Shown here piece by piece: positions 1 through 7,764 of a DNA stretch of 32,000 bases (position 1 is the stretch's first letter; each line of letters opens with the position of its first letter). A model generated the notes under the pieces. That model saw nothing but the letters and a program-made list of their open reading frames with translations, had not been told where the DNA came from and did no database searches. This stretch comes from Planctopirus limnophila DSM 3776 (GTDB taxonomy: Bacteria > Planctomycetota > Planctomycetia > Planctomycetales > Planctomycetaceae). Where the stretch lies: contig NC_014148.1 of assembly GCF_000092105.1 (NCBI RefSeq), forward strand, positions 1,560,001 to 1,592,000. The letters are read 5' to 3'. A program made the position numbers and the translations under genes.

Positions 1-1725
1 GATGGGTTGGCCAGCGTCGTGAAGATCACAGACGACCTTAAAAATGGTCATCCATTTCCCCAGGCCACTCTTCCCGAATTTGGAGAGATCCTGCACGAAC
101 TCCGTCACAAGGGCTGCTTTCTCTCCCAGAAGAGATTTTGCGTATTCAACACCTTTTGTGAATTTCCGACCGGGAAGCAGAATTTTCCCCTGATTATCAA
201 ATCGCAACCAATCAAAGCCAGCGGCGGCAAAGACCGCTTTATGGCGAAGTTCCTGTGACCAGGGGCCAGCCTTCTGGGCGACAAATTTTGAATTGATGGC
301 ATGCCTGCGGAGATGTTTCAGGCCGAACATGTGCTTCTGAATGACAAACTCGTTGTTTGGTCTATCTGGTGCCAGATGAAGAAGCTCTTGCAGTAACAAG
401 CACAGAATCGCCGCATCGTCTTTGTAAGGTGTACCTGTTTCGGCAGTCGGAGATGAAACAATTTGCGGCTTTGGCGGTTGGATAACTTTTTCTACTTCCG
501 GCTGTTGAAAGGTCGGTTCATCAAAATCGATTTCCAGAGACTCAACATCCAGTTCACCGCTGATGAGTTTGGGAAGTAAGAGGTCACGGGTTTTGCGAAG
601 GATTTTGTTTTTTCTAAGGATATTTTCAATGTGCTTTACTACGGGGGTTGTAAGAACGTCAAACTTCTGAATTAAAAATGGTTGCGGAAGAATAATTTCA
701 AGATCCGCTATCAATTTTGTTGTCAGACTTCCACGAGAGCTACCGTCAGAGATCTGCCGGAACTGGTCATACCTTTGCACTAAATCAAAAAATAAAAAAC
801 TATCAGTAGTTTGCTTACCATCAGCCGTTACAGCAATTGTTGACTGATTGATGTAGCAATCTAGGCAAAGCATCGACGTTTGGCCACGAGTCTTGCCTTG
901 GCCCGCACTTGCAATAACAGTGCAGCCAGATCGTGCAAAACGGGTACTTGAATTAGTCACGCCCTCCTGTGTGATTTTCTTTTCAGTCTCTGTAATAAAG
1001 GTGTTTCCGGTTTCGCCGGATGATAGCCACGGAATATCACCATCCCAGTATTCATTGACATTAGTTCTTGGTGTCCCTCCGCTAGTAATTCTTTCGCAAA
1101 TTGAATCCAATCGTTTAACCTGCCAACCCTCAGGGATTTTGCCGAGTGGGGAATCGACGAGCAGGGTGTTTTCGTGGCCTGGGAAGCGGAAGTGGACGAA
1201 CCATTCCCGGTAAATGGCCTGGGCCATCTCTTCCAGAATGGCAATTCGCCGGGTGTTGTTCTCAATCAGATCATCATACGCCGAAAGAATCCCCGCAATT
1301 TTGCGTTGGACTGGCTCGGATGGAAATGTCAACTGTAAACCGTTCAAAATTGTTAAAGTCAAGAACTTGGTTGCGGCACCTGTGGATATACTTTGCAAAT
1401 GTTCAAGCAAGGGCCACATAGAGTAGTAAAGGAAACGCGTGTTGAGTCGCGTGCAATCTTGTGGCGTAACAACATACGTGCGTTGATACGCGTCAAATCG
1501 TCCGTGAAAATACTTTAGTGGATATATGCCGTTGGCATTGTTTCCGGCGAGTAACACACATTCTGTATCGAAGGCAAAAGTGTTTGTGCGAAGCGTCTCT
1601 TGCGAGCATGTAAAAAAGGGATATGCACCGTTTGATACAGCAGCATTTGAATTCAGCTTGCCCGTCTTGAAAGTCACTAGATTGCTAAGGGCGTCTGTCG
1701 TCCAGCCATTTGGAGGCATATTCAT
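1..1725 (-). CDS. hsdS: Type I restriction-modification specificity subunit HsdS (two target-recognition domains) fused in frame to a C-terminal extension of unknown function; 3' end beyond the window edge
   Basis: Own translation of the minus strand. ATG at 1725-1723 overlaps the hsdM stop (ATGA). No TTA/CTA/TCA triplet occurs in plus-strand frame 1 from nt 1 to 1752, so 575 codons are open. The ORF is missing from the supplied track because it has no stop inside the window. Protein starts [23 protein letters not shown]. Central conserved helix is [36 protein letters not shown] and distal conserved helix is [19 protein letters not shown], which is the classic TRD1-CR1-TRD2-CR2 HsdS layout. 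At least 180 further residues follow. Confidence 0.85.
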
Positions 1726-3323
1726 AATGCTGCCTCCAACAATTTGACGACGTTAACGGCAATTCGTTCTTCCAACTCACGGGCTTCACTGTTGAGAACT
1801 TCCAGTTCTTCACTCAGTTCTTCCAGCCGTTCGGCAAACACAAAATCGTCCGGGGCTTTGTCGGCAACTCCCACATACCGGCCTGGGTTCAAACTCCAGC
1901 CCTGGGCTTCAATTTCCTGGAGTGTGGCGATTTTGCAGAGTCCAGCCACATCCGCATACTTCAGCTTCGGGAAGGTGGCTTTCAGGTCTGGTTCGACTCC
2001 AGGAAACTCCAGGTCGTCTCCAGCGGTGAATTCGGGTTGTTCACCACGATAGAGCCGCACGATATTGGCAATGTATTCGAGTTGCTTCGGGCTGAATTTG
2101 CGGTGGGCACGATCCACCTGCCGGAAGATGTGCCGAGCATCAATGAAGAGCACCTGCTCTTTCCGCTGGGAACCTTTCCCGCTGAGATTGCTTTTCCCTT
2201 TATCGAGGAACCAGAGCGTGCAGGGCAACGTGACCGTGTAGAAGAAGTTCGGGCCAATGGCAATCATCACATCCACCACATGAGCCTTGAGCAGCTTCTG
2301 GCGGATTTCCATTTCGGATTGCCGGGCATCGGCGGCACTGTTGGCCATGACAAAGCCAGCCCGGCCTGTGGCATTCAATGACGAGTAGAACAACTCAATC
2401 CACAGGTAATTGGCATTGTCGGCTCGGGGCATTCCCAAAGGAAACCGGGGATCTTCCTTAAGCTTCTCCTTATCGACTTTGTCCACATTGAAGGGAGGAT
2501 TGGCCATCACGAAATCAAACTTGCCCACGGATTCATGAGGGTCTTCGTAATAGGTGTTCCCCTGGCGGATGTCTCCTGATAAGCCGTGAACTGCCAAGTT
2601 CATCTGGCATAGCTGACGGGTTTCATCCACGCGTTCTTGTCCGTAGATCGAAATCTCGACAGCAGGGTTGTTGTGGTGAGCTTTGATGAAGTCAGCCGAT
2701 TGCACAAACATTCCGCCTGAACCACAGGCAGGATCGTATATGCGGCCATGGTAAGGTTGAATGATTTCGACAATCAGTTTCACCAATGAGGTGGGAGTAA
2801 AGAACTCACCCCCTTTTTGACCTTCGGCTCGGGCAAAGTTCCCCAGGAAGTATTCGTAAATCTTCCCGAACGTATCTCCTTCGGCATCCACAGGGATGGA
2901 GGAAAGATTTTTGAGCAGAGAGACCAGCGTGGTGTTCTCAATTTTGCTGTAAGTTTTGGGAAGAATGCCTTTGAGTTCTTCGTTCTCTTTTTCAATGGCT
3001 TTCATAGCCGTAGTGATGGCCTTGCCGATGTCTTCACCTTCGGGAAGTTCCAGCAGAGCGGAGAAGCGGGATTCTGGCGGGAGGAACATCACCCCTTTGG
3101 CTTGAAAATCTTCTTTGCCAATAGCCCGACGGCTGCCGCTCTTTTTCGCAAAGAGAACATTCAGTTCTCGTTCGGCCTGGGTAAACCGGTGATCGGCATA
3201 CCGCAGGAAGATCAGCCCCAGCACGGGAACCGAATACTCGGACGATTTCAGTTTGCTGTTAGCCCGCAATTCATCTGCGGAAGCCCACAAGCGGCGTTCT
3301 ATTTCGGTGTGTCCGTTGGCCAT
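1722..3323 (-). CDS. hsdM: Type I restriction-modification DNA methyltransferase subunit HsdM (N6-adenine)
   Basis: ORF 1722..3437 in the track. It has an HsdM N-terminal-type segment ([17 protein letters not shown]...[14 protein letters not shown]), AdoMet motif I ([10 protein letters not shown]) and catalytic motif IV NPPF (VMANPPFN). Start placed at the internal Met ([13 protein letters not shown], nt 3323) by analogy with HsdM N-termini; the longest ORF starts at 3437. Confidence 0.9.
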
Positions 3324-3493
3324 GGATAGAGGAGCAGTCTTAAGGGGGAAGCCGTCATTAGAAAAATGTTGTACCAGTGAAAAAGAGTAGATGATTGGTG
3401 AACCCTTCGAAAGGGTGTTTGCATGGGAGAGATTCATCAGCCTTTATTCCAGGTGACTGATTTTCGGTTTGTGTAGGTCAGGCAAGAGTGTGT

Positions 3494-3526
3494 TCCATTT
3501 TCCCCATACTCCAAGGGTGTATGGCA
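3494..3526 (+). repeat. Copy A of the island repeat motif (tCCATTTTCCCCA-N2-CTCCA-N-GGG..GT.TGG)
   Basis: tccattttccccatactccaagggtgtatggca. It aligns with copy B at 6024. Weaker shared tail (tgttcag.tttt) after a 17-nt insertion in A. Lies in the hsdM/orf438 divergent intergenic region. Confidence 0.7.
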
Positions 3527-3869
3527 CCCTCTCATGGGTGTGTTCTTGTGTTCAGTTTTAATGCGCTTTTGGGTAAGTTTGGCCGAGCCTCAGAAATCGC
3601 TCGTAGATCGCTTTGGTTGCCGGGATGATGGATTGTTCGTCCTGGGCCACGAGAGGCGATTTCCGGGCCAGCGAGAGGCCTTAATGACGATGAGAGCGTG
3701 TCCGGGATGAACGGTTTTTGATCAGTCATCGATGCTTGGTGTGTTCTTTTGTTCATGTTTGTGTGAAATTCACAACCCAAGTGCAGGTTTTAAGTTGCGT
3801 CAAATTCCAGTGCTGCTGTTATGCTCACAACGACCTGATTGTGAGTTTCTTCCAGACACATGAGGTTTC

Positions 3870-5186
3870 ATGTCCGAGCTGCCAGCCGTTTTGCGTGCCT
3901 ATCGTCGGGAGTTCGAGCTGTTCCGGGGGAAATATGGAACAGTGGGAGTTGTCATTCTCTGCAAGTTGGATTGGAAATCTGCCGGTATAGAGTTCCCAGC
4001 CACTGGCTGCTCACCACCAGATCACGTTTGGGATTTGACGGAAGACAAGATTTTGTGGGCCAGAGAGTTTCCAAGTCGTGCTCCCGAGCCAAACGACACA
4101 GAAGCTGATCCATTTCAACGCGTTATTCGTTTTGATGGCCGGTCTGACCAGTCTTTTCAGGGAGCGGGATTACGTTCGGCTCAACTGCAAATTTTGGCCA
4201 GCTCTGCTGATGAGCTGTCGGAGTGCCAACTCCCAGAGAACCCAGCCACCAGCTCATTACAGTCAAGATCGTATGCCACGCCAGATGGCCAGATCTTGCA
4301 GGTGACAAATTCCACTTCCTCCACAACATCCAGACATCAGCTCTCTGGTGGAGTTATGGAACTGAGGTTTTTCGGACAGTTGCACGGTTTTGATTTTGAA
4401 CTGGAGAAGCTTCAGAAAAACGTTTTGAAGGCTCTGGAGAACTGGTGGCCAGCTTCAGAGATTCTGAGAGAGTTCTGCCCAGCCTTGAAGTTTTCGTGCA
4501 CTCCCATTTTACAGGCTCATCTGTGGGCCGAATTGGTTTACTGGGTGAGCCAATCGAAATTTGTGCATTCACCCTATGTGATTGAGAAGTGGATTCCTGC
4601 ACAGACGTCTTACAACATCAAACGGAAACTCTGGTCTTCTCTCTCCCAGAAGAAAACAGGAATGTCTTCAATTCCTGCTGACAGAATCCCCATCTGTTGG
4701 TGCAGTGGCCTGAAGGATTTGGCAGCAGCTTCTGTGGTCTTCCTGGATGTGCTGGCGGAACGATTTGGCAAAAGCTCTTCAGCAGTGGCAATCATTCCGC
4801 CTGAGCCAGCCACAAACCTGGAGCCAATCATTACAGGCAGTGCTCCAGCAGGTGGAGAAGCAACGCCAGCCAGCAAACTCAACGCATGGCCTGAAGAAAT
4901 CAAAGAAAAATTGTTGAATACTGCAACGCCTCTTGAGCAGCGGATTATCAGGTTTTTCTGGGAGAGAAAGCACGCATCCGACATTCAAAGTCTAATTGAT
5001 GCTGCCTGGGGAGATAAGCCAGACACTTCGGTTGAAACTGTGAAAAAGGCAATTCAGCGGCTCAATCTGAAATTTGCAGACAACCTGACAATTTCGTTTC
5101 ATCCCAGCACAGACCGAGTTCAGTTCGAGCTATTGAAGCATTCAGGCAATTCCCAGCAGCCGGACAAATCAGCGGACAAATTTTAG
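3870..5186 (+). CDS. Hypothetical protein (438 aa), no recognisable N-terminal family; C-terminal winged-helix-like DNA-binding domain
   Basis: Long ORF with no competing frame. The C-terminal segment LEQRIIRFFWERKHASDIQSLIDAAWGDKPDTSVETVKKAIQRLNLKF resembles the OmpR/PhoB Trans_reg_C pattern (..LL..VWG......TV.V.I.RLR.KL). No Walker, nuclease or RT motifs were noticed. Confidence 0.7.
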   Translation: MSELPAVLRAYRREFELFRGKYGTVGVVILCKLDWKSAGIEFPATGCSPPDHVWDLTEDKILWAREFPSRAPEPNDTEADPFQRVIRFDGRSDQSFQGAGLRSAQLQILASSADELSECQLPENPATSSLQSRSYATPDGQILQVTNSTSSTTSRHQLSGGVMELRFFGQLHGFDFELEKLQKNVLKALENWWPASEILREFCPALKFSCTPILQAHLWAELVYWVSQSKFVHSPYVIEKWIPAQTSYNIKRKLWSSLSQKKTGMSSIPADRIPICWCSGLKDLAAASVVFLDVLAERFGKSSSAVAIIPPEPATNLEPIITGSAPAGGEATPASKLNAWPEEIKEKLLNTATPLEQRIIRFFWERKHASDIQSLIDAAWGDKPDTSVETVKKAIQRLNLKFADNLTISFHPSTDRVQFELLKHSGNSQQPDKSADKF

Positions 5187-5281
5187 GACATGGCTGTCCC
5201 CTGATTTGTCGGCCTCTCGTGGCATAGTTCCCCTACCGCATCAACGACGAGCGGAGAACATGACCTGTGAGAGAGGTGATT

Positions 5282-5503
5282 ATGTCCAAGTCCTTAATTC
5301 GTGCTCCTTCATTACGCCAGCTTCCACCACCTGCCGAAATTCGGCGTGACCTGGGAGCCATCACCAGGGAGGCCGCTTTCCTGCGTTCCATGCTCAAGCT
5401 ATCAGAACGCTTACACCGTCATTTGGAACTGATTCAAACACTTCAATCCATTCAGGGAGATTCCAAGCATGTCCAGTGTAACCGCAGCCAGCCCAGCCGA
5501 TGA
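5282..5503 (+). CDS. Small hypothetical protein (about 73 aa), predicted helical
   Basis: ATG at 5282 is preceded by gagaggtgatt (SD-like). The ORF sits between orf438 and the HTH gene and overlaps the latter by 35 nt. No family recognised. Confidence 0.4.
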   Translation: MSKSLIRAPSLRQLPPPAEIRRDLGAITREAAFLRSMLKLSERLHRHLELIQTLQSIQGDSKHVQCNRSQPSR

Positions 5504-5720
5504 TTTCCACAGCAACCCTAACGAGAAACTTTTGATATCTGCTAAGGAGGCAGCTCGGCGGCTATCTATCAGTGAGCGTAGTCTATGGTCTTTAACGAAC
5601 CAACGCCGAATTCCCACTATTCGAATCGGACGAAGTGTTCGTTATTCCGTGATTGGCTTGGAAGAGTGGATTCGGCAGTCCACCCAGAGTCAGTACCGGG
5701 GGGGAGGTTCCCGAACCTGA
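5469..5720 (+). CDS. Excisionase / AlpA-type helix-turn-helix DNA-binding protein
   Basis: LLISAKEAARRLSISERSLWSLTNQRRIPTIRIGRSVRYSVIGLEEWIRQ matches the excisionase-family HTH (HTH_17-like) pattern. Located next to an integrase. Confidence 0.75.
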   Translation: MSSVTAASPADDFHSNPNEKLLISAKEAARRLSISERSLWSLTNQRRIPTIRIGRSVRYSVIGLEEWIRQSTQSQYRGGGSRT

Positions 5721-5849
5721 CGTTGTCCAAGATACCGCCCCCGGTGCCTGAAATGTGCCGCACCGAAAAGTCACCAGGAAAAGGGCCGGAAAGTGAGCAA
5801 ATCTTGTGCTTTTTCAGCAAAAGCCAACGAAGGGCACCCTGGCTAGCCT

Positions 5850-6018
5850 CCTCACGTGCACGCGTGCGTAATTATTATATTATATATTTAATAATTACAA
5901 TTTCTGAAGTTTCTCTGGGAGTTGGTTATTATCTAATAACCAACTCCCAGAGAAGATAATAAGGCTCTTTAAGAGACTTTATTATGGTTGTGTAATTAAC
6001 GCACGCACGCACGTGAGG
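5850..6018. repeat. Composite structured non-coding region: imperfect 25/26-bp inverted repeats flanking an AT tract and two palindromes
   Basis: Left arm is cctcacgtgcacgcgtgcgtaatta (5850-5874). Right arm is taattaacgcacgcacgcacgtgagg (5993-6018), differing by 1 indel and 2 mismatches. Both arms are alternating purine/pyrimidine tracts. nt 5871-5900 contains a single C. Confidence 0.85.
5911..5954. repeat. Perfect 44-bp palindrome (21-bp arms, 2-nt centre)
   Basis: ttctctgggagttggttatta-tc-taataaccaactcccagagaa; arms verified base by base as exact reverse complements. Followed by an imperfect palindrome at 5956-5985 (ataataaggctctt/aagagactttattat). Confidence 0.95.
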
Positions 6019-6023
6019 GGCTG

Positions 6024-6060
6024 TCCATTTTCCCCACGCTCCAGGGGGGGTGTGTGGTGC
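6024..6060 (+). repeat. Copy B of the island repeat motif
   Basis: tccattttccccacgctccagggggggtgtgtggtgc, starting 4-6 nt after the right inverted-repeat arm. Confidence 0.7.
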
Positions 6061-6087
6061 GTTTGTTCAGGTTTTTGCCAGTGCAGG

Positions 6088-6123
6088 CCATTTTCCCCAC
6101 GGTTTAGGGGTATGTACATAGGG
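6088..6123 (+). repeat. Copy C (more diverged) of the island repeat motif
   Basis: gccattttccccacggtttaggggtatgtacatagg shares the CCATTTTCCCCAC core and the GGG block. It lies 64 nt downstream of copy B in the same orientation. Confidence 0.55.
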
Positions 6124-6226
6124 TTTCACCCCCTCTTTCACGAAATGGTTTTTCAATTTCTCCACACTGTTTGAGTGCCGAAATCGTATGATTTGCACCC
6201 CGGTGAGGTGATTAAGGTACTATCTC

Positions 6227-6268
6227 CCAGAAAATCAGACCGATTTTAGAGATCATCCAGAAAATCAG
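6227..6268 (+). promoter_or_regulatory. Two 12-bp direct repeats (CCAGAAAATCAG) 30 bp apart, just upstream of the integrase start
   Basis: ccagaaaatcag at 6227-6238 and 6257-6268. An aaaatc/gatttt dyad lies between them. The int ATG is at 6289. Confidence 0.4.
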
Positions 6269-6288
6269 CATCCAGGAAGGTTTTTTAT

Positions 6289-7764
6289 ATGTCCAGCGTC
6301 TTCAAACGAAATGGCAAAGGCAATTACTACGCAACGTGGTTTGACCATCTGGGAAACCGCATGACTCAATCCACGAGAACATCTGATAAAGCAGCGGCTG
6401 AAAGAATTGTGAAGCAGTGGGAAGCACAGGCTGCACTTCGTCGTGAGAATGTGATTGATCCCAGAATGGAAACCTTGACAAAGCAAGGGCAGCTTTCAGT
6501 GGAAAGCCACTTGAAAGACTTCGAGGCTTCCATGGTCTCTTCCAATCGTACGGACAAGCATGTCCAACATGTCGTGGGAGTTGTCCGCAAGATTTCAGCA
6601 GCAGCACACTTTGGACGCATCAATGAAATTTCTGCGGAAGGCGTCAACCGGTACGCTTCCTCATTGAAAGGCAAACGTTCTTTACGAACGATTCAATCCC
6701 ATCTTTCTGCCATGAAGGCATTCACGCTCTGGCTGTGGAGAAATCACAAACTTTCTGTTGACCCTCTTTCGTCTATCCGTCTGCCAGATCCAAGAAAAGA
6801 GCGTCGGAGAACCCGCCGATTTCTTTTGGTTGAAGAGTTTGATTGGTTAAAAGCGGTCACTGAGGCCAGCCCACGAGCTTTCGGGATGTCTGGTTACGCC
6901 AGAGCCTTGCTGTACGAACTGGCCATCGTTTCGGGGCTCCGTTCGGCAGAACTTCGCAGCTTGAAGAAGTCTAACTTTGTGCTGAAGACTGATCAGCCGC
7001 ACGTGTTGTGTTTGGCTCATGCCACCAAGAATCGGAAAAAGTGCCGCCAATACCTTCCATCTGATCTGGCAGCAAGATTGGATGAATTCCTGAAATCAAA
7101 GCGTGACAACGAAGTAGCCTTTGACATGCCACGCTCCGAACGTATTCCCAAAATGTTGCGTGCTGATCTTTTGGCTGCACGTAAAGCCTATCTGTCATCT
7201 GATGAAATCCATCTCCCAGAGAAACAAAAACGTCAGCAAGATGAATTCCTTTGTGATTCGACATCGGAGGGAGTTCTCGACTTTCACTCATTGCGGCACA
7301 CTTGCGGAGTTTGGCTGAGTCAGGCTGGAGCGAATCCCAAAGCCATCCAGGCAATCATGCGCCACAGCACCATTACCTTAACCATGGATACATACGGTCA
7401 TCTGCTGCCTGGAGAGCAGGCAGGGCTTGTGGATCTGGTGACTGAGTACCAAAAAGCCAAAATCGGCCACAAATCCGACGACGACCTACAGCGCAAATTA
7501 CAGCAGTCAGAGAGCGGAGCAGTGCGGAAGGTTGCGGCTGTGTGCCAGAAGGCTGACCAGTCAGCACGTGGCGACAGTCCGCATAACTCATTGCCAGAGA
7601 ACGAATTATGCGAACCCGTGCGAGCCGTTGCTGTGAGAAACGAAACTACGCCCATGTGGATTCGAACCACAGACCGTCGGATTAGAAATCCGATGCTCTA
7701 TCCAGCTGAGCTATGGGCGCGAGTCATCTTGATCGAGGATCAAGATCTGCATGTATTGCAATGA
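6289..7764 (+). CDS. int: Tyrosine site-specific recombinase (phage-type integrase) with a long C-terminal tail
   Basis: Catalytic signature: LAIVSGLRSAELRSL (Arg), HSLRHTCGVWL (H-x-x-R), MRHSTITLTMDTYGHL (His...Tyr369). N-terminal SAM-like domain. The ORF stays open for 122 codons after the catalytic Tyr and crosses tRNA-Arg on the opposite strand. Confidence 0.9.
   Translation: MSSVFKRNGKGNYYATWFDHLGNRMTQSTRTSDKAAAERIVKQWEAQAALRRENVIDPRMETLTKQGQLSVESHLKDFEASMVSSNRTDKHVQHVVGVVRKISAAAHFGRINEISAEGVNRYASSLKGKRSLRTIQSHLSAMKAFTLWLWRNHKLSVDPLSSIRLPDPRKERRRTRRFLLVEEFDWLKAVTEASPRAFGMSGYARALLYELAIVSGLRSAELRSLKKSNFVLKTDQPHVLCLAHATKNRKKCRQYLPSDLAARLDEFLKSKRDNEVAFDMPRSERIPKMLRADLLAARKAYLSSDEIHLPEKQKRQQDEFLCDSTSEGVLDFHSLRHTCGVWLSQAGANPKAIQAIMRHSTITLTMDTYGHLLPGEQAGLVDLVTEYQKAKIGHKSDDDLQRKLQQSESGAVRKVAAVCQKADQSARGDSPHNSLPENELCEPVRAVAVRNETTPMWIRTTDRRIRNPMLYPAELWARVILIEDQDLHVLQ
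7647..7720 (-). tRNA. tRNA-Arg (anticodon UCU)
   Basis: Minus strand folds by hand into a cloverleaf: GCGCCCA-TA-GCTC-AGCTGGATA-GAGC-A-TCGGA-TTTCTAA-TCCGA-CGGTC-TGTGG-TTCGAAT-CCACA-TGGGCGT-A. It has a 7-bp acceptor stem (G1-U72 wobble), a GG D-loop, a TTCGAAT T-loop and anticodon TCT. CCA is not encoded. Confidence 0.9.

Follow-up and report, generated by a model that had tools for sequence, protein, structure and literature searches.

In the Int/Vis system of phage P4, the promoter region of the integrase gene is controlled by Int together with an RDF. The immunity regions of phages such as lambda (OL/OR) and 186 have multipartite operators that involve long-range looping. In the IntS/TorI system of KplE1, the integrase gene of a tRNA-associated element is controlled by Int and RDF sites near its promoter (PMC2951348).

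The locus described here, in a 32-kb window of planctomycete DNA (the whole stretch that was analyzed), shares with KplE1 a repeat-packed noncoding region before int and a small HTH excisionase-type gene, and such repeated sites, right before int and beside an RDF-type gene, are found in five elements. The likeness has a limit, however. The KplE1 sites are arm sites of att, since att and the int promoter overlap there, whereas here att lies at the 3′ end of int, and the three classes of motif that we call M, R, and DR are absent beside it. Literature searches on planctomycete islands and on Z-DNA at integrase promoters found nothing directly relevant to such an arrangement.

In our reading, to which we give nearly even probability, a composite control region that acts in cis occupies the xis–int spacer, and the module at 5850–6018 would be its upstream half. 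Among the roles offered by a first-pass annotation of this DNA, which had also considered an origin and an oriT, recombination-directionality control fits best, since a conserved, repeat-rich spacer separates xis and int in every close relative.

Results

The element and its relatives

The host is a small, rare planctomycete mobile element inserted at tRNA-Arg. Its family has a four-gene core, all of it on the + strand here: orf438 (3870..5186), encoding a fast-evolving protein specific to the element family; the gene for a conserved 73-aa protein (5282..5503); an excisionase-like HTH_17 gene (5469..5720; HTH_17 E 1.1e-10, with PHROG excisionase matches), which terminates in a conserved G7 run; and a tyrosine integrase gene (6289..7764; Phage_integrase E 8e-15). 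The last two bear out the xis-like and int neighbors that had been proposed for the module. Three family members carry restriction-modification cargo. The module is part of the 568-bp spacer that runs from the HTH_17 gene to int, and a scan of this spacer for a hidden conserved ORF found none.

The int ORF crosses tRNA-Arg(tct) (7647–7720) in the antisense direction. Assembly breaks suggest an att repeat at 7562..7697, with limits of ± about 30 nt at each end, made up of the 3′ part of the tRNA plus 55–85 nt; three Logan contigs from the same strain end at 7591, and the right-hand contig begins at 7668. Identical contigs are present in SRR017854/5, SRR10279970, and SRR4046663, so that the host strain appears to have been sequenced as an isolate. 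A search of the window, L001, and L002 for another copy of the tRNA/att segment gave none, the other end of the island lying beyond the available DNA, and exact-protein look-ups with right-flank genes, aimed at an empty attB or alternative junctions, gave one contig only. Conserved beside att are TTACAG repeats and TTATGCGA..GTGCGA. An M-like site at 7591, by the att boundary, was taken as coincidence because the relatives do not keep it.

Comparison rests on five independent spacers, those of the window, L001, L002 (with L166), L252, and L007; the integrases of the relatives are 50–55% identical to that of the window. The five share a long length and the M, R, and DR classes of motif, but their nucleotide sequences are otherwise unalignable, with too much divergence to score covariation column by column. 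When the Int alignment was run against metagenome and viral collections, the only new members were L086 and L087, both identical to L007. In more distant members of the family, a small XRE-type HTH gene takes the place of the spacer, which suggests that this position is a regulatory slot for int.

Architecture and folding of the module

The module is bounded by two inverted arms of alternating purines and pyrimidines of the TAYGCACGC type, which we call R boxes. The left box (RY-L, 5850..5870) includes GCGTGCGTA and the strictly alternating 18-nt Py/Pu tract CACGTGCACGCGTGCGTA (5853–5870), within which lie CACGTG, GTGCAC, and ACGCGT. The right box (RY-R, 5999..6018) is an (ACGC)n arm, with ACGCACGCACGCACGTG at 5999–6015, that pairs with 5850–5869. 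The outer inverted repeat so formed (5850–5869/5999–6018) is 20 nt long at 90% and grows to about 27 bp, with bulges, on folding. Inside it is a 34-nt tract with a single C (5870–5903, 2.9% GC), which holds an AT-only hairpin (5868..5898), followed by a perfect 44-bp palindrome (5911..5954; 21-nt arms, 100% complementary, 2-nt gap) and by a hairpin at 5956..5985, AT-rich and imperfect, that appears on folding and is not kept in relatives. Apart from the AT-only hairpin, these elements had all been picked out in the first-pass annotation, whose description is confirmed: its imperfect 25-bp inverted repeat was a fair estimate, and its near-pure AT tract extends somewhat further than was stated. 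A minus-strand sequence of the sigma-70 type (TTCAGA-18-TATAAT, 5908 to 5879) overlaps the AT-only hairpin, the count of such matches in the region being about that expected from shuffles. On the + strand there is no sigma-70-like promoter upstream of int, an observation that counts against the operator reading of the spacer.

Terminal inverted repeats of 20 nt around an AT-rich interior, itself bracketed by the 10-nt direct repeat TGYGTAATTA (5865 and 5989; 9/10), would also be the outline of a 169-bp MITE inserted between xis and int. But no second copy of the unit turned up in the 32-kb window or among about 250 fetched loci, and its arms and palindrome have no match in phage, plasmid, or viral-contig collections. 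Moreover, there is no target-site duplication; the flanks (...TGGCTAGCCT and GGCTGTCC...) continue the inverted repeat instead. The putative terminal repeats are R boxes native to the orthologous spacers of L001, L002, and L252, and the interior carries the M boxes of the element family itself. We give such an insertion a very small probability.

The palindrome-rich module is real and far beyond chance. Each arm sequence is unique in the 32 kb, and no shuffle gave two matches. A 191-nt stretch folds strongly as + strand RNA (−96.5 kcal/mol, z −13.8), as − strand RNA (−91.3 kcal/mol, z −15.1), and as DNA (−55.2 kcal/mol, z −14.1), with zero shuffles as stable in any of the three. At only about 30% GC, the module ranks among the stablest 100-nt windows of the 32 kb. 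Four of the five spacers fold well below their shuffles (z −13.8, −8.7, −8.5, and −4.8), a result that weighs against the binding-site reading; that of L007 is unstructured (z 0.04).

The folds do not correspond to a recognized RNA. An Rfam scan of the module (cmscan) gave zero matches at gathering thresholds and, at E up to 10, generic hairpin families only, far under their cut-offs. A canonical intrinsic terminator was considered and rejected, there being no GC-rich hairpin with an immediate U-tract. The large hairpins all lack a U-tract, the stem of the 44-bp palindrome is preceded by T-rich and followed by A-rich DNA, the wrong polarity for a terminator, and a terminator scan returned two weak matches only, both inside RY-L and equal in number to the shuffle expectation.

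Inverted repeats enclosing a long hairpin also recall the msr/msd layout of retrons, a resemblance pointed out at the outset together with the missing RT gene, and an oriT or a lambda-type attP arm could be drawn in the same way. The likeness is superficial. The window ORFs scanned and the called genes include neither an RT nor a relaxase domain, which tells against both a retron and the suggested oriT; for a retron, in addition, the downstream neighbor is a tyrosine integrase, Rfam gives no match, and the nesting is absent in relatives. As for an attP arm, the putative att repeat is some 1.6 kb distant, and the motifs conserved beside it differ from M, R, and DR. We regard this whole group of identities as scarcely credible.

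Nesting itself had been put forward as a sign of function, an argument that the comparison with relatives does not support: they keep the motif classes but do not keep the nested structure. Motif order and nesting vary among them. The R arms are separated by 129 nt in the window, lie adjacent in L002 and L252, and are interleaved with the M arms in L001; the 129-nt AT-rich insert is found in the window only. Because the R arms abut in two relatives and the AT insert is confined to the window, we take the nested hairpin-in-hairpin fold to be a lineage-specific rearrangement. The nesting would then have arisen by chance in a single lineage, and what is conserved would be the vocabulary of boxes.

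M boxes

The arms of the 44-bp palindrome each carry an M box, one inverted relative to the other (TTCTCTGGGAG/CTCCCAGAGAA). The M box consensus is CTCC(N0–1)CAGARAA, and the form in the window palindrome is CTCCCAGARAA. Six exact M boxes fall within 4230–7223 and none in the rest of the 32 kb; with up to one mismatch allowed, there are 10 sites against 1.5 expected, a number reached by no shuffle. For the shorter CCCAGARAA, six of seven matches are in 3 kb (binomial p ~4e-6). Coding regions carry M boxes too, orf438 having two exact copies (4230, +; 4954, −). All five related spacers contain inverted M pairs at variable distances, the gap between half-sites ranging from 4 to ~108 nt in either relative orientation, too variable for a simple dimer operator.

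Besides the pairs, every member has an unpaired M copy at a fixed position before int. The solo box of the window is CTCCCAGAAAA (6224–6234, +), 65 nt before the int ATG, and a direct repeat, CCAGAAAATCAG (6227–6238 and 6257–6268, +), ends 21 nt before the same ATG; solo boxes likewise lie ~50–65 nt before the int start in L001, L002, L166, L252, and L007. In L007, all five M copies share the variant CCTCAGAAA, which suggests a common trans-acting reader or concerted evolution. We thus take the M box to be a sequence motif and not merely a pairing partner.

The arms of several dyads are, however, complementary well past the M core, and in lineage-specific sequence. In the window the match is 21/21, with 10 complementary bases between the M box and the center in each arm, and the L252 dyad has 20-nt arms and a stem of roughly 35 bp that extends beyond the conserved core. 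Half-site binding alone does not explain this complementarity, which fits either selection for hairpins or the mutational perfecting of quasi-palindromes.

It is here that the hairpins themselves become candidates for function, as RNA or as extruded or single-stranded DNA. They could possibly form a structured xis 3′UTR or int 5′UTR that insulates int from, or pauses, read-through from the xis operon, possibly as a block relieved by the AlpA-like HTH_17 protein, or the folded form could be recognized by a protein, as in integron attC sites, REP sequences, and rolling-circle origins. The very strong folding of four spacers and the arm complementarity beyond the core favor such a role, as does the solo M box, which in every member has complementarity with M(−) arms upstream of it (12/12 in L001 and L002, for example), so that alternative pairings are possible. 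Against it, besides the Rfam and terminator results above, the mismatches favor no consistent strand: the RY stem has A·C/C·A on the + strand and so pairs better on the − strand, and the first M pair of L002 has G·T on the + strand. Box order and nesting change from relative to relative, the L007 spacer has no structure, and M boxes occur in coding regions as well. The int-proximal leader, including the solo M box region, is unstructured and the ribosome-binding site is not sequestered; masking of that site by the solo box was rejected because the leaders are unstructured. On balance we think a function of the hairpins as such unlikely.

Alternating purine–pyrimidine tracts

Alternating tracts of 16–39 nt occur in the xis–int spacers of L001, L002, and L252 but are nearly absent from the rest of about 0.75 Mb of related loci. 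The window has tracts of 18 and 17 nt, L001 of 23 and 16 nt, L002 of 29 and 39 nt, and L252 one of 20 nt, and L001 has CACGCACGCACGCG at the place equivalent to RY-R, just 5′ of its first DR. In the three closest elements, the spacers show a ~140-fold enrichment of tracts of at least 14 nt (6 versus 0.025 expected; Poisson p ~3e-13), and L252 adds one more. Conserved alternating boxes of this kind are unusual for a bacterial regulatory region.

The tracts are rich in CG and CA/TG steps, as Z-DNA-forming sequences are. The B-to-Z cost per window tract would be ~8–10.5 kcal/mol before junctions, by approximate textbook dinucleotide energies. It is conceivable, then, that the inverted R boxes and the M palindromes form a DNA-structure switch, in which negative supercoiling or transcription of the xis operon would drive a flip to Z-DNA or the extrusion of a cruciform and so gate protein binding and int expression. 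If this were true, excision in a planctomycete element family would be under a conserved control that senses supercoiling. We consider it a doubtful proposition.

Direct repeats

Just outside the module, on the + strand, are three DR units (6020..6175; starts at 6020, 6083, and 6148, the third weak). Each consists of an element-specific half (CCATTTTCCCCAC in the window), 5 nt, and a conserved AGGGGTG. The arrays contain two or three direct repeats of 28–40 bp each, with start-to-start distances of 63 and 65 bp in the window, 43 and 41 in L001, 34 and 32 in L002, 64 in L007, and 44 in L252; the spacing is close to whole helical turns in all five elements. Because the units are direct repeats, they form no hairpin. 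A fourth unit (TCCATTTTCCCCATActccAAGGGTGTATGG, 3489..3528, +) lies 375 nt upstream of orf438, and an extra DR upstream of the orf438 operon is present in three elements, the window, L001 (−2627), and L002 (−2560). The variable half of the DR differs by element, whereas the N-terminal domain of Int, the Xis protein, and the 73-aa protein are nearly invariant. The orf438 products are only 25–43% identical among elements, and the pairing of a variable DR half with a diverged orf438 fits an element-specific regulator and its operators.

This arrangement resembles the lambda OL/OR and 186 systems in two ways: operator-like copies stand at one promoter with another 2.6–2.8 kb away at a second operon, and the repeat sequence varies between related elements while the architecture is constant. 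It differs in that the DRs are direct, asymmetric, 28–40 bp long, and 32–65 bp apart, and in that no repressor is recognized.

Phased direct repeats could also be iterons. Iteron-binding initiators end in a winged helix, and the origins of SaPIs consist of AT-rich DNA flanked by sets of repeats, much as in the window. Under a vegetative origin of the excised element, the DRs would be the iterons, the AT tract the unwinding element, and the dyads auxiliary sites, with orf438 as an initiator that autoregulates through the DR before its own gene. The window indeed has helical-phase direct repeats beside an AT-rich tract, a DR upstream of orf438, and in orf438 an element-specific, putatively DNA-binding protein whose C terminus may be a winged helix; the sign of this is weak, Trans_reg_C having matched the orf438 C termini at E 0.004, a score that misses the Pfam cut-off, in one of four homologues.

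Several results weaken this origin reading, which the first-pass annotation had raised. The AT tract is specific to the window, since L001, L002, L252, and L007 have no equivalent. The DR spacing, 32–65 bp, is wider than that of typical iterons, and the conserved core includes no helicase or primase. Searches for an initiator gave no candidate family: Pfam and PHROGs offered no Rep, primase, or helicase match for orf438, sequence and profile searches of the PDB were empty, and an alignment of three sequences contained no invariant HUH-like motif. A word-indexed protein search with orf438 gave zero matches, and an exhaustive HMMER search of 1.84 billion representative proteins placed its family in four clusters; a single-sequence AlphaFold model was poor (pLDDT 33). 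We judge the origin reading rather improbable.

The DRs, the M boxes, or both could also be secondary recombination sites of Int, at which upstream modules are exchanged or deleted. The suggestion comes from L003, which shares the Int and right flank of L002; the two part exactly at the left border of DR3, past which L003 has an unrelated truncated ORF. Two further contigs stop 9–23 nt from that point, a contig from the window strain begins 44 nt left of DR4, and for many contigs of the family the end falls no more than a few hundred bases before int. Such a system would be loosely like integron attI/attC, which likewise has direct repeats and a single box beside a tyrosine recombinase gene and, upstream, imperfect inverted repeats whose outer boxes are conserved and whose centers vary. 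It would differ in that int is co-oriented with the upstream genes, cassettes are absent, and an ordinary tRNA att site lies 1.6 kb away. Further, the junction is a single one from a metagenome assembly, mosaic breakpoints before int are common in the family even where there is no DR, and M gaps of 4 to ~108 bp do not fit a crossover region of 6–8 bp. We therefore hold secondary recombination to be very improbable.

Discussion

We return to the reading of the spacer as a control region for int. Specifically, the module may be a binding-site array for element-encoded proteins that sets int expression, a view that the motifs favor and that we hold tentatively, at somewhat short of an even chance. 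The dyads would then be paired recognition sites, the 44-bp palindrome as a pair of M sites and the outer arms as a pair of R sites. Downstream of them follow two or three DRs, which lie along a single helical face, and then the solo M box ~60 nt before int. The sequences themselves show the presence, conservation, copy number, positions, and phasing of these boxes, and we infer that element-encoded DNA-binding proteins occupy them. Their cooperative binding, with looping of the intervening DNA, would set the level of int transcription and, through it, the balance of integration and excision. The candidate binders are the HTH_17 protein, the 73-aa protein, Int, and the fast-evolving orf438 product, and any assignment of proteins to boxes would be guesswork. 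The extra DR upstream of orf438 raises the possibility that the same system also sets transcription of the orf438–xis operon.

Mobile elements of the Planctomycetota are almost unstudied, and the comparison made here defines a small integrative family at tRNA-Arg. Its spacer offers a compact, testable case of how int expression is set when att is not beside the int promoter. If orf438 is the specificity-determining regulator, it would represent a new family of DNA-binding proteins.

Results

The 568-bp spacer holding the repeat-rich module lies between an HTH_17 excisionase-like gene (xis; 83 aa, 5469-5720) and int, which encodes a tyrosine integrase of 491 aa (6289-7764). Upstream of xis are the minus-strand hsdM (1722-3437), orf438 (3870-5186), and a 73-aa ORF between orf438 and xis. 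The features that the first-pass annotation had listed at 5850-6018 are all present in the sequence. A strictly alternating 18-nt tract, CACGTGCACGCGTGCGTA (5853-5870), and its partner arm, ACGCACGCACGCACGTG (5999-6015), form an inverted repeat (5850-5869/5999-6018; 20 nt, 90%) that reaches ~27 bp with bulges when folded. Between these arms lie a 34-nt AT tract with a single C (5870-5903; 2.9% GC), a perfect palindrome with 21-nt arms (5911-5954), and an imperfect hairpin (5956-5985). Two direct copies of the 10-nt TGYGTAATTA, at 5865 and 5989, flank the AT-rich interior. The arm sequences do not recur in the window, and no shuffle reached two matches. Folding as RNA and single-stranded DNA, as had been proposed, gave z scores of -13.8 (plus-strand RNA), -15.1 (minus-strand RNA), and -14.1 (DNA) for a 191-nt stretch, which ranks among the most stable 100-nt windows of the 32 kb at a GC content of only ~30%. 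The observation is thus genuine and highly non-random. One Logan contig of the same strain (L169) stops at 5969, just past the 44-bp palindrome; an assembly break is expected where a palindrome exceeds the assembler word size.

Homologues of Int number in the hundreds and come from Planctomycetota, which places the window in a planctomycete, but few reach at least 50% identity. In the loci that share its layout, a homologue of orf438 is followed by a small ORF, an HTH_17 gene, a long spacer, int, and tRNA-Arg. These loci are L001 (= L006; spacer 536 nt), L002 (559 nt; its Int is identical in L003-L005), L166 (138 nt of sequence upstream of int), L252 (= L253; 701 nt; found via the orf438 homologue P0124), and L007 (= L086 = L087; 548 nt), a truncated element whose orf438 homologue is reduced to its last ~95 codons, beside an mreB-like fragment (1-1200). 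In distant Int relatives (L045, L107, L093, L098, L030, L031, and L038), the place of the 540-700-nt non-coding spacer, immediately before int, is taken by a small XRE-type HTH gene. Two of these, L093 and L098, have int genes that are 99.6% identical, yet the genes ahead of them are unrelated and the sequences part abruptly at -67. A 50.9-kb viral contig, IMGVR_UViG_2936139773_000001 (L173, L174), has an Int homologue (39% identity) near both ends.

No base-level alignment of the relatives' spacers was possible, and a search for an ORF conserved among them found none, but they are assembled from one set of boxes. The first is the M box, CTCC(N0-1)CAGARAA, whose exact copies in the window are at 4230(+), 4954(-), 5911(-), 5944(+), 6224(+), and 7213(+), with no others. 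Allowing up to one mismatch, 10 copies are observed in the window where 1.5 are expected, and six of seven matches to CCCAGARAA fall inside 3 kb (p ~4e-6). The 44-bp palindrome is no more than two M boxes in inverted orientation. Each relative has one to three inverted pairs, with 4, 10, 22, or ~108 nt between half-sites, which among relatives occur in either relative orientation; a solo M box stands ~50-65 nt before the int start in every relative, and all copies in L007 are the variant CCTCAGAAA. The second, the R box, corresponds to the arms previously described as Z-DNA-prone: the spacers of the window, L001, L002, and L252 have an inverted pair of alternating Pu/Py tracts of 16-39 nt, in which GCGTGCGTA or the complementary ACGCACGC is found. 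Alternating tracts of at least 14 nt occur at 0.015 per kb in ~0.74 Mb of other related DNA, versus six in 1.7 kb of spacer (p ~3e-13). The third, the DR unit, is a bipartite direct repeat consisting of an element-specific T-rich half ending in CAC, 5 nt, and a conserved AGGGGTG. Two or three copies lie between the dyads and int, at spacings of 63/65, 43/41, 34/32, 64, and 44 bp, all near whole helical turns, and the window (3489-3528), L001, and L002 each have an extra unit ahead of the orf438 operon. A fourth motif, GGGGGACTATAGGGGG, is common to L001, L007, and L252. Also upstream of orf438 is a 23-nt direct repeat, GGTGTGTTCTTGTGTTCAGTTTT (87%; 3537-3559 and 3738-3760, 201 nt apart), and a related sequence, TGTTCAGGTTTTT, comes after the first DR unit, at ~6064. 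Runs of G7-G8 recur throughout the spacers, and the 3' end of xis carries a G7 run (5699-5705) that is kept in L001, L002, L007, and L252. One contig (L170, from the early run SRR017855) has G6 there, a frameshift giving 93 rather than 83 aa; this could be sequencing error or phase variation.

The motifs thus recur in related islands, but their nesting and order do not. The window has 129 nt between its R arms; in L002 and L252 the arms are adjacent, and in L001 they interleave with M arms. The AT-only tract has no counterpart in the relatives' spacers. Without the AT-rich interior, the window's R arms would give a simple hairpin like those of L002 and L252. The nested, retron-like look is therefore a rearrangement of one lineage, and fold z scores range from the window's -13.8 through -8.7 (L002), -8.5 (L252), and -4.8 (L001) to 0.0 in the truncated L007, whose spacer, without R boxes, is not unusually structured. 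A retron, to which the layout had been superficially likened, is not supported, as no reverse transcriptase was found among the window ORFs scanned or the called genes and Rfam gave no hit. The suggestion of an oriT likewise finds no support, with no relaxase among the island ORFs in the window. Could the module instead be a MITE? Its "terminal repeats" might be read in this way, but they are native to orthologous spacers, target-site duplication is absent, and the module is single copy across the window, the related loci, and the phage, plasmid, and viral-contig collections searched, making this unlikely.

The int ORF reads antisense through the whole of tRNA-Arg(tct) (7647-7720), an overlap seen in all five subfamily loci scanned (L001, L002, L007, L086, and L166). 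The consensus C-terminus of the Int family is itself translated tRNA sequence (...IRTxDxRIRxPLLYPxEL), which would put the att core within the int 3' end throughout this large planctomycete family. Because three same-strain Logan contigs end at 7591 and the right-hand contig starts at 7668, we infer an att repeat at ~7562-7697 that takes in the 3' portion of the tRNA and a further 55-85 nt. No repeat copy of this segment occurs in the window, so the second att copy lies to its left; the genes right of the tRNA look chromosomal. The module is therefore island-internal, ~1.6 kb from att, which argues against an attP arm. The motifs conserved beside att are not M, R, or DR boxes but TTACAG repeats, as TTACAG-N-TTACAGCAGTC, and TTATGCGA..GTGCGA, just left of the tRNA (7482-7506 and ~7605-7625). 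Their conservation across five elements exceeds that predicted from 50% protein identity, and we regard them as candidate arm-type or core-proximal sites for Int. An M-like box, TTGCCAGAGAA (7591-7601, two mismatches), starts exactly where the three contigs end; it is not kept in relatives, and we rejected it as a meaningful att-edge site, the match probably being coincidence.

Discussion

Our leading interpretation, held tentatively and at slightly less than even confidence, is a composite region of protein-binding sites that controls int, and perhaps also the orf438-xis operon, in a rare planctomycete family of integrative elements. The boxes would serve as multiple sites in double-stranded DNA, recognized in trans. 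We favor this because unpaired M copies keep their sequence at a fixed position, every M copy in L007 carries the same change, the DR units are direct repeats in helical phase, and another DR copy is found at a second operon, at a distance of 2.6-2.8 kb.

Alternatively, hairpins could be under selection as RNA, single-stranded DNA, or cruciforms. The dyad arms remain complementary well past the M core, where their sequence is specific to the lineage (21/21 for the window; arms of 20 nt and a stem of roughly 35 bp for L252). Quasi-palindromes, however, tend to be perfected by template switching, which could equally explain this complementarity. Moreover, mismatches indicate no consistent strand, the int-proximal leader lacks structure, and the large hairpins have no U-tracts, which also argues against an intrinsic terminator. 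An origin, as the first-pass annotation proposed, is a less likely possibility, suggested by the phased repeats, the AT tract, and an orf438 without recognized relatives, but the relatives' spacers lack the AT tract and Pfam, PHROG, and PDB comparisons revealed no recognizable replication protein. Finally, with low probability, DR units could take part in recombination. A metagenome contig (L003, 1-110) departs from L002 (7780-7900) exactly at the left edge of DR3; it has the Int protein and right flank of L002 and, beyond that edge, a truncated ECF-sigma-like ORF absent from L002, and two further contigs end within 9-23 nt of the divergence point. In this family, however, mosaic breakpoints commonly fall upstream of int, including where no DR unit is present.

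If the boxes are protein sites, their readers may be encoded by the element. The Int N-terminal domain, Xis, and the 73-aa protein are nearly invariant and show no co-variation with the variable half of the DR units. The orf438 protein has diverged, with 25-43% identity between elements (including P0122-P0124). This pattern would make orf438 the candidate reader of DR units and the conserved proteins candidate readers of M and R boxes. The orf438 protein has no relatives in Pfam, PHROG, or PDB, and its family amounts to no more than four clusters in a set of 1.84 billion representative proteins; a sub-threshold Trans_reg_C match hints that its C-terminus may be a winged helix. Regulation of an integrase gene by Int and RDF sites beside its promoter has precedent in KplE1 (PMC2951348). 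In KplE1, however, the att arms themselves are the regulatory sites; in the present element, att lies at the opposite end of int.

Restriction-modification genes adjoin the conserved core, with type I hsdS and hsdM in the window (1-3437; L167) and an MmeI-like enzyme in L001 (768-4583) and L002 (1-852), the latter also carrying HNH and DUF6946 genes; this cargo suggests a small defence-carrying island. The most unusual parts of the proposed control region are its conserved alternating Pu/Py boxes and the orf438 protein.
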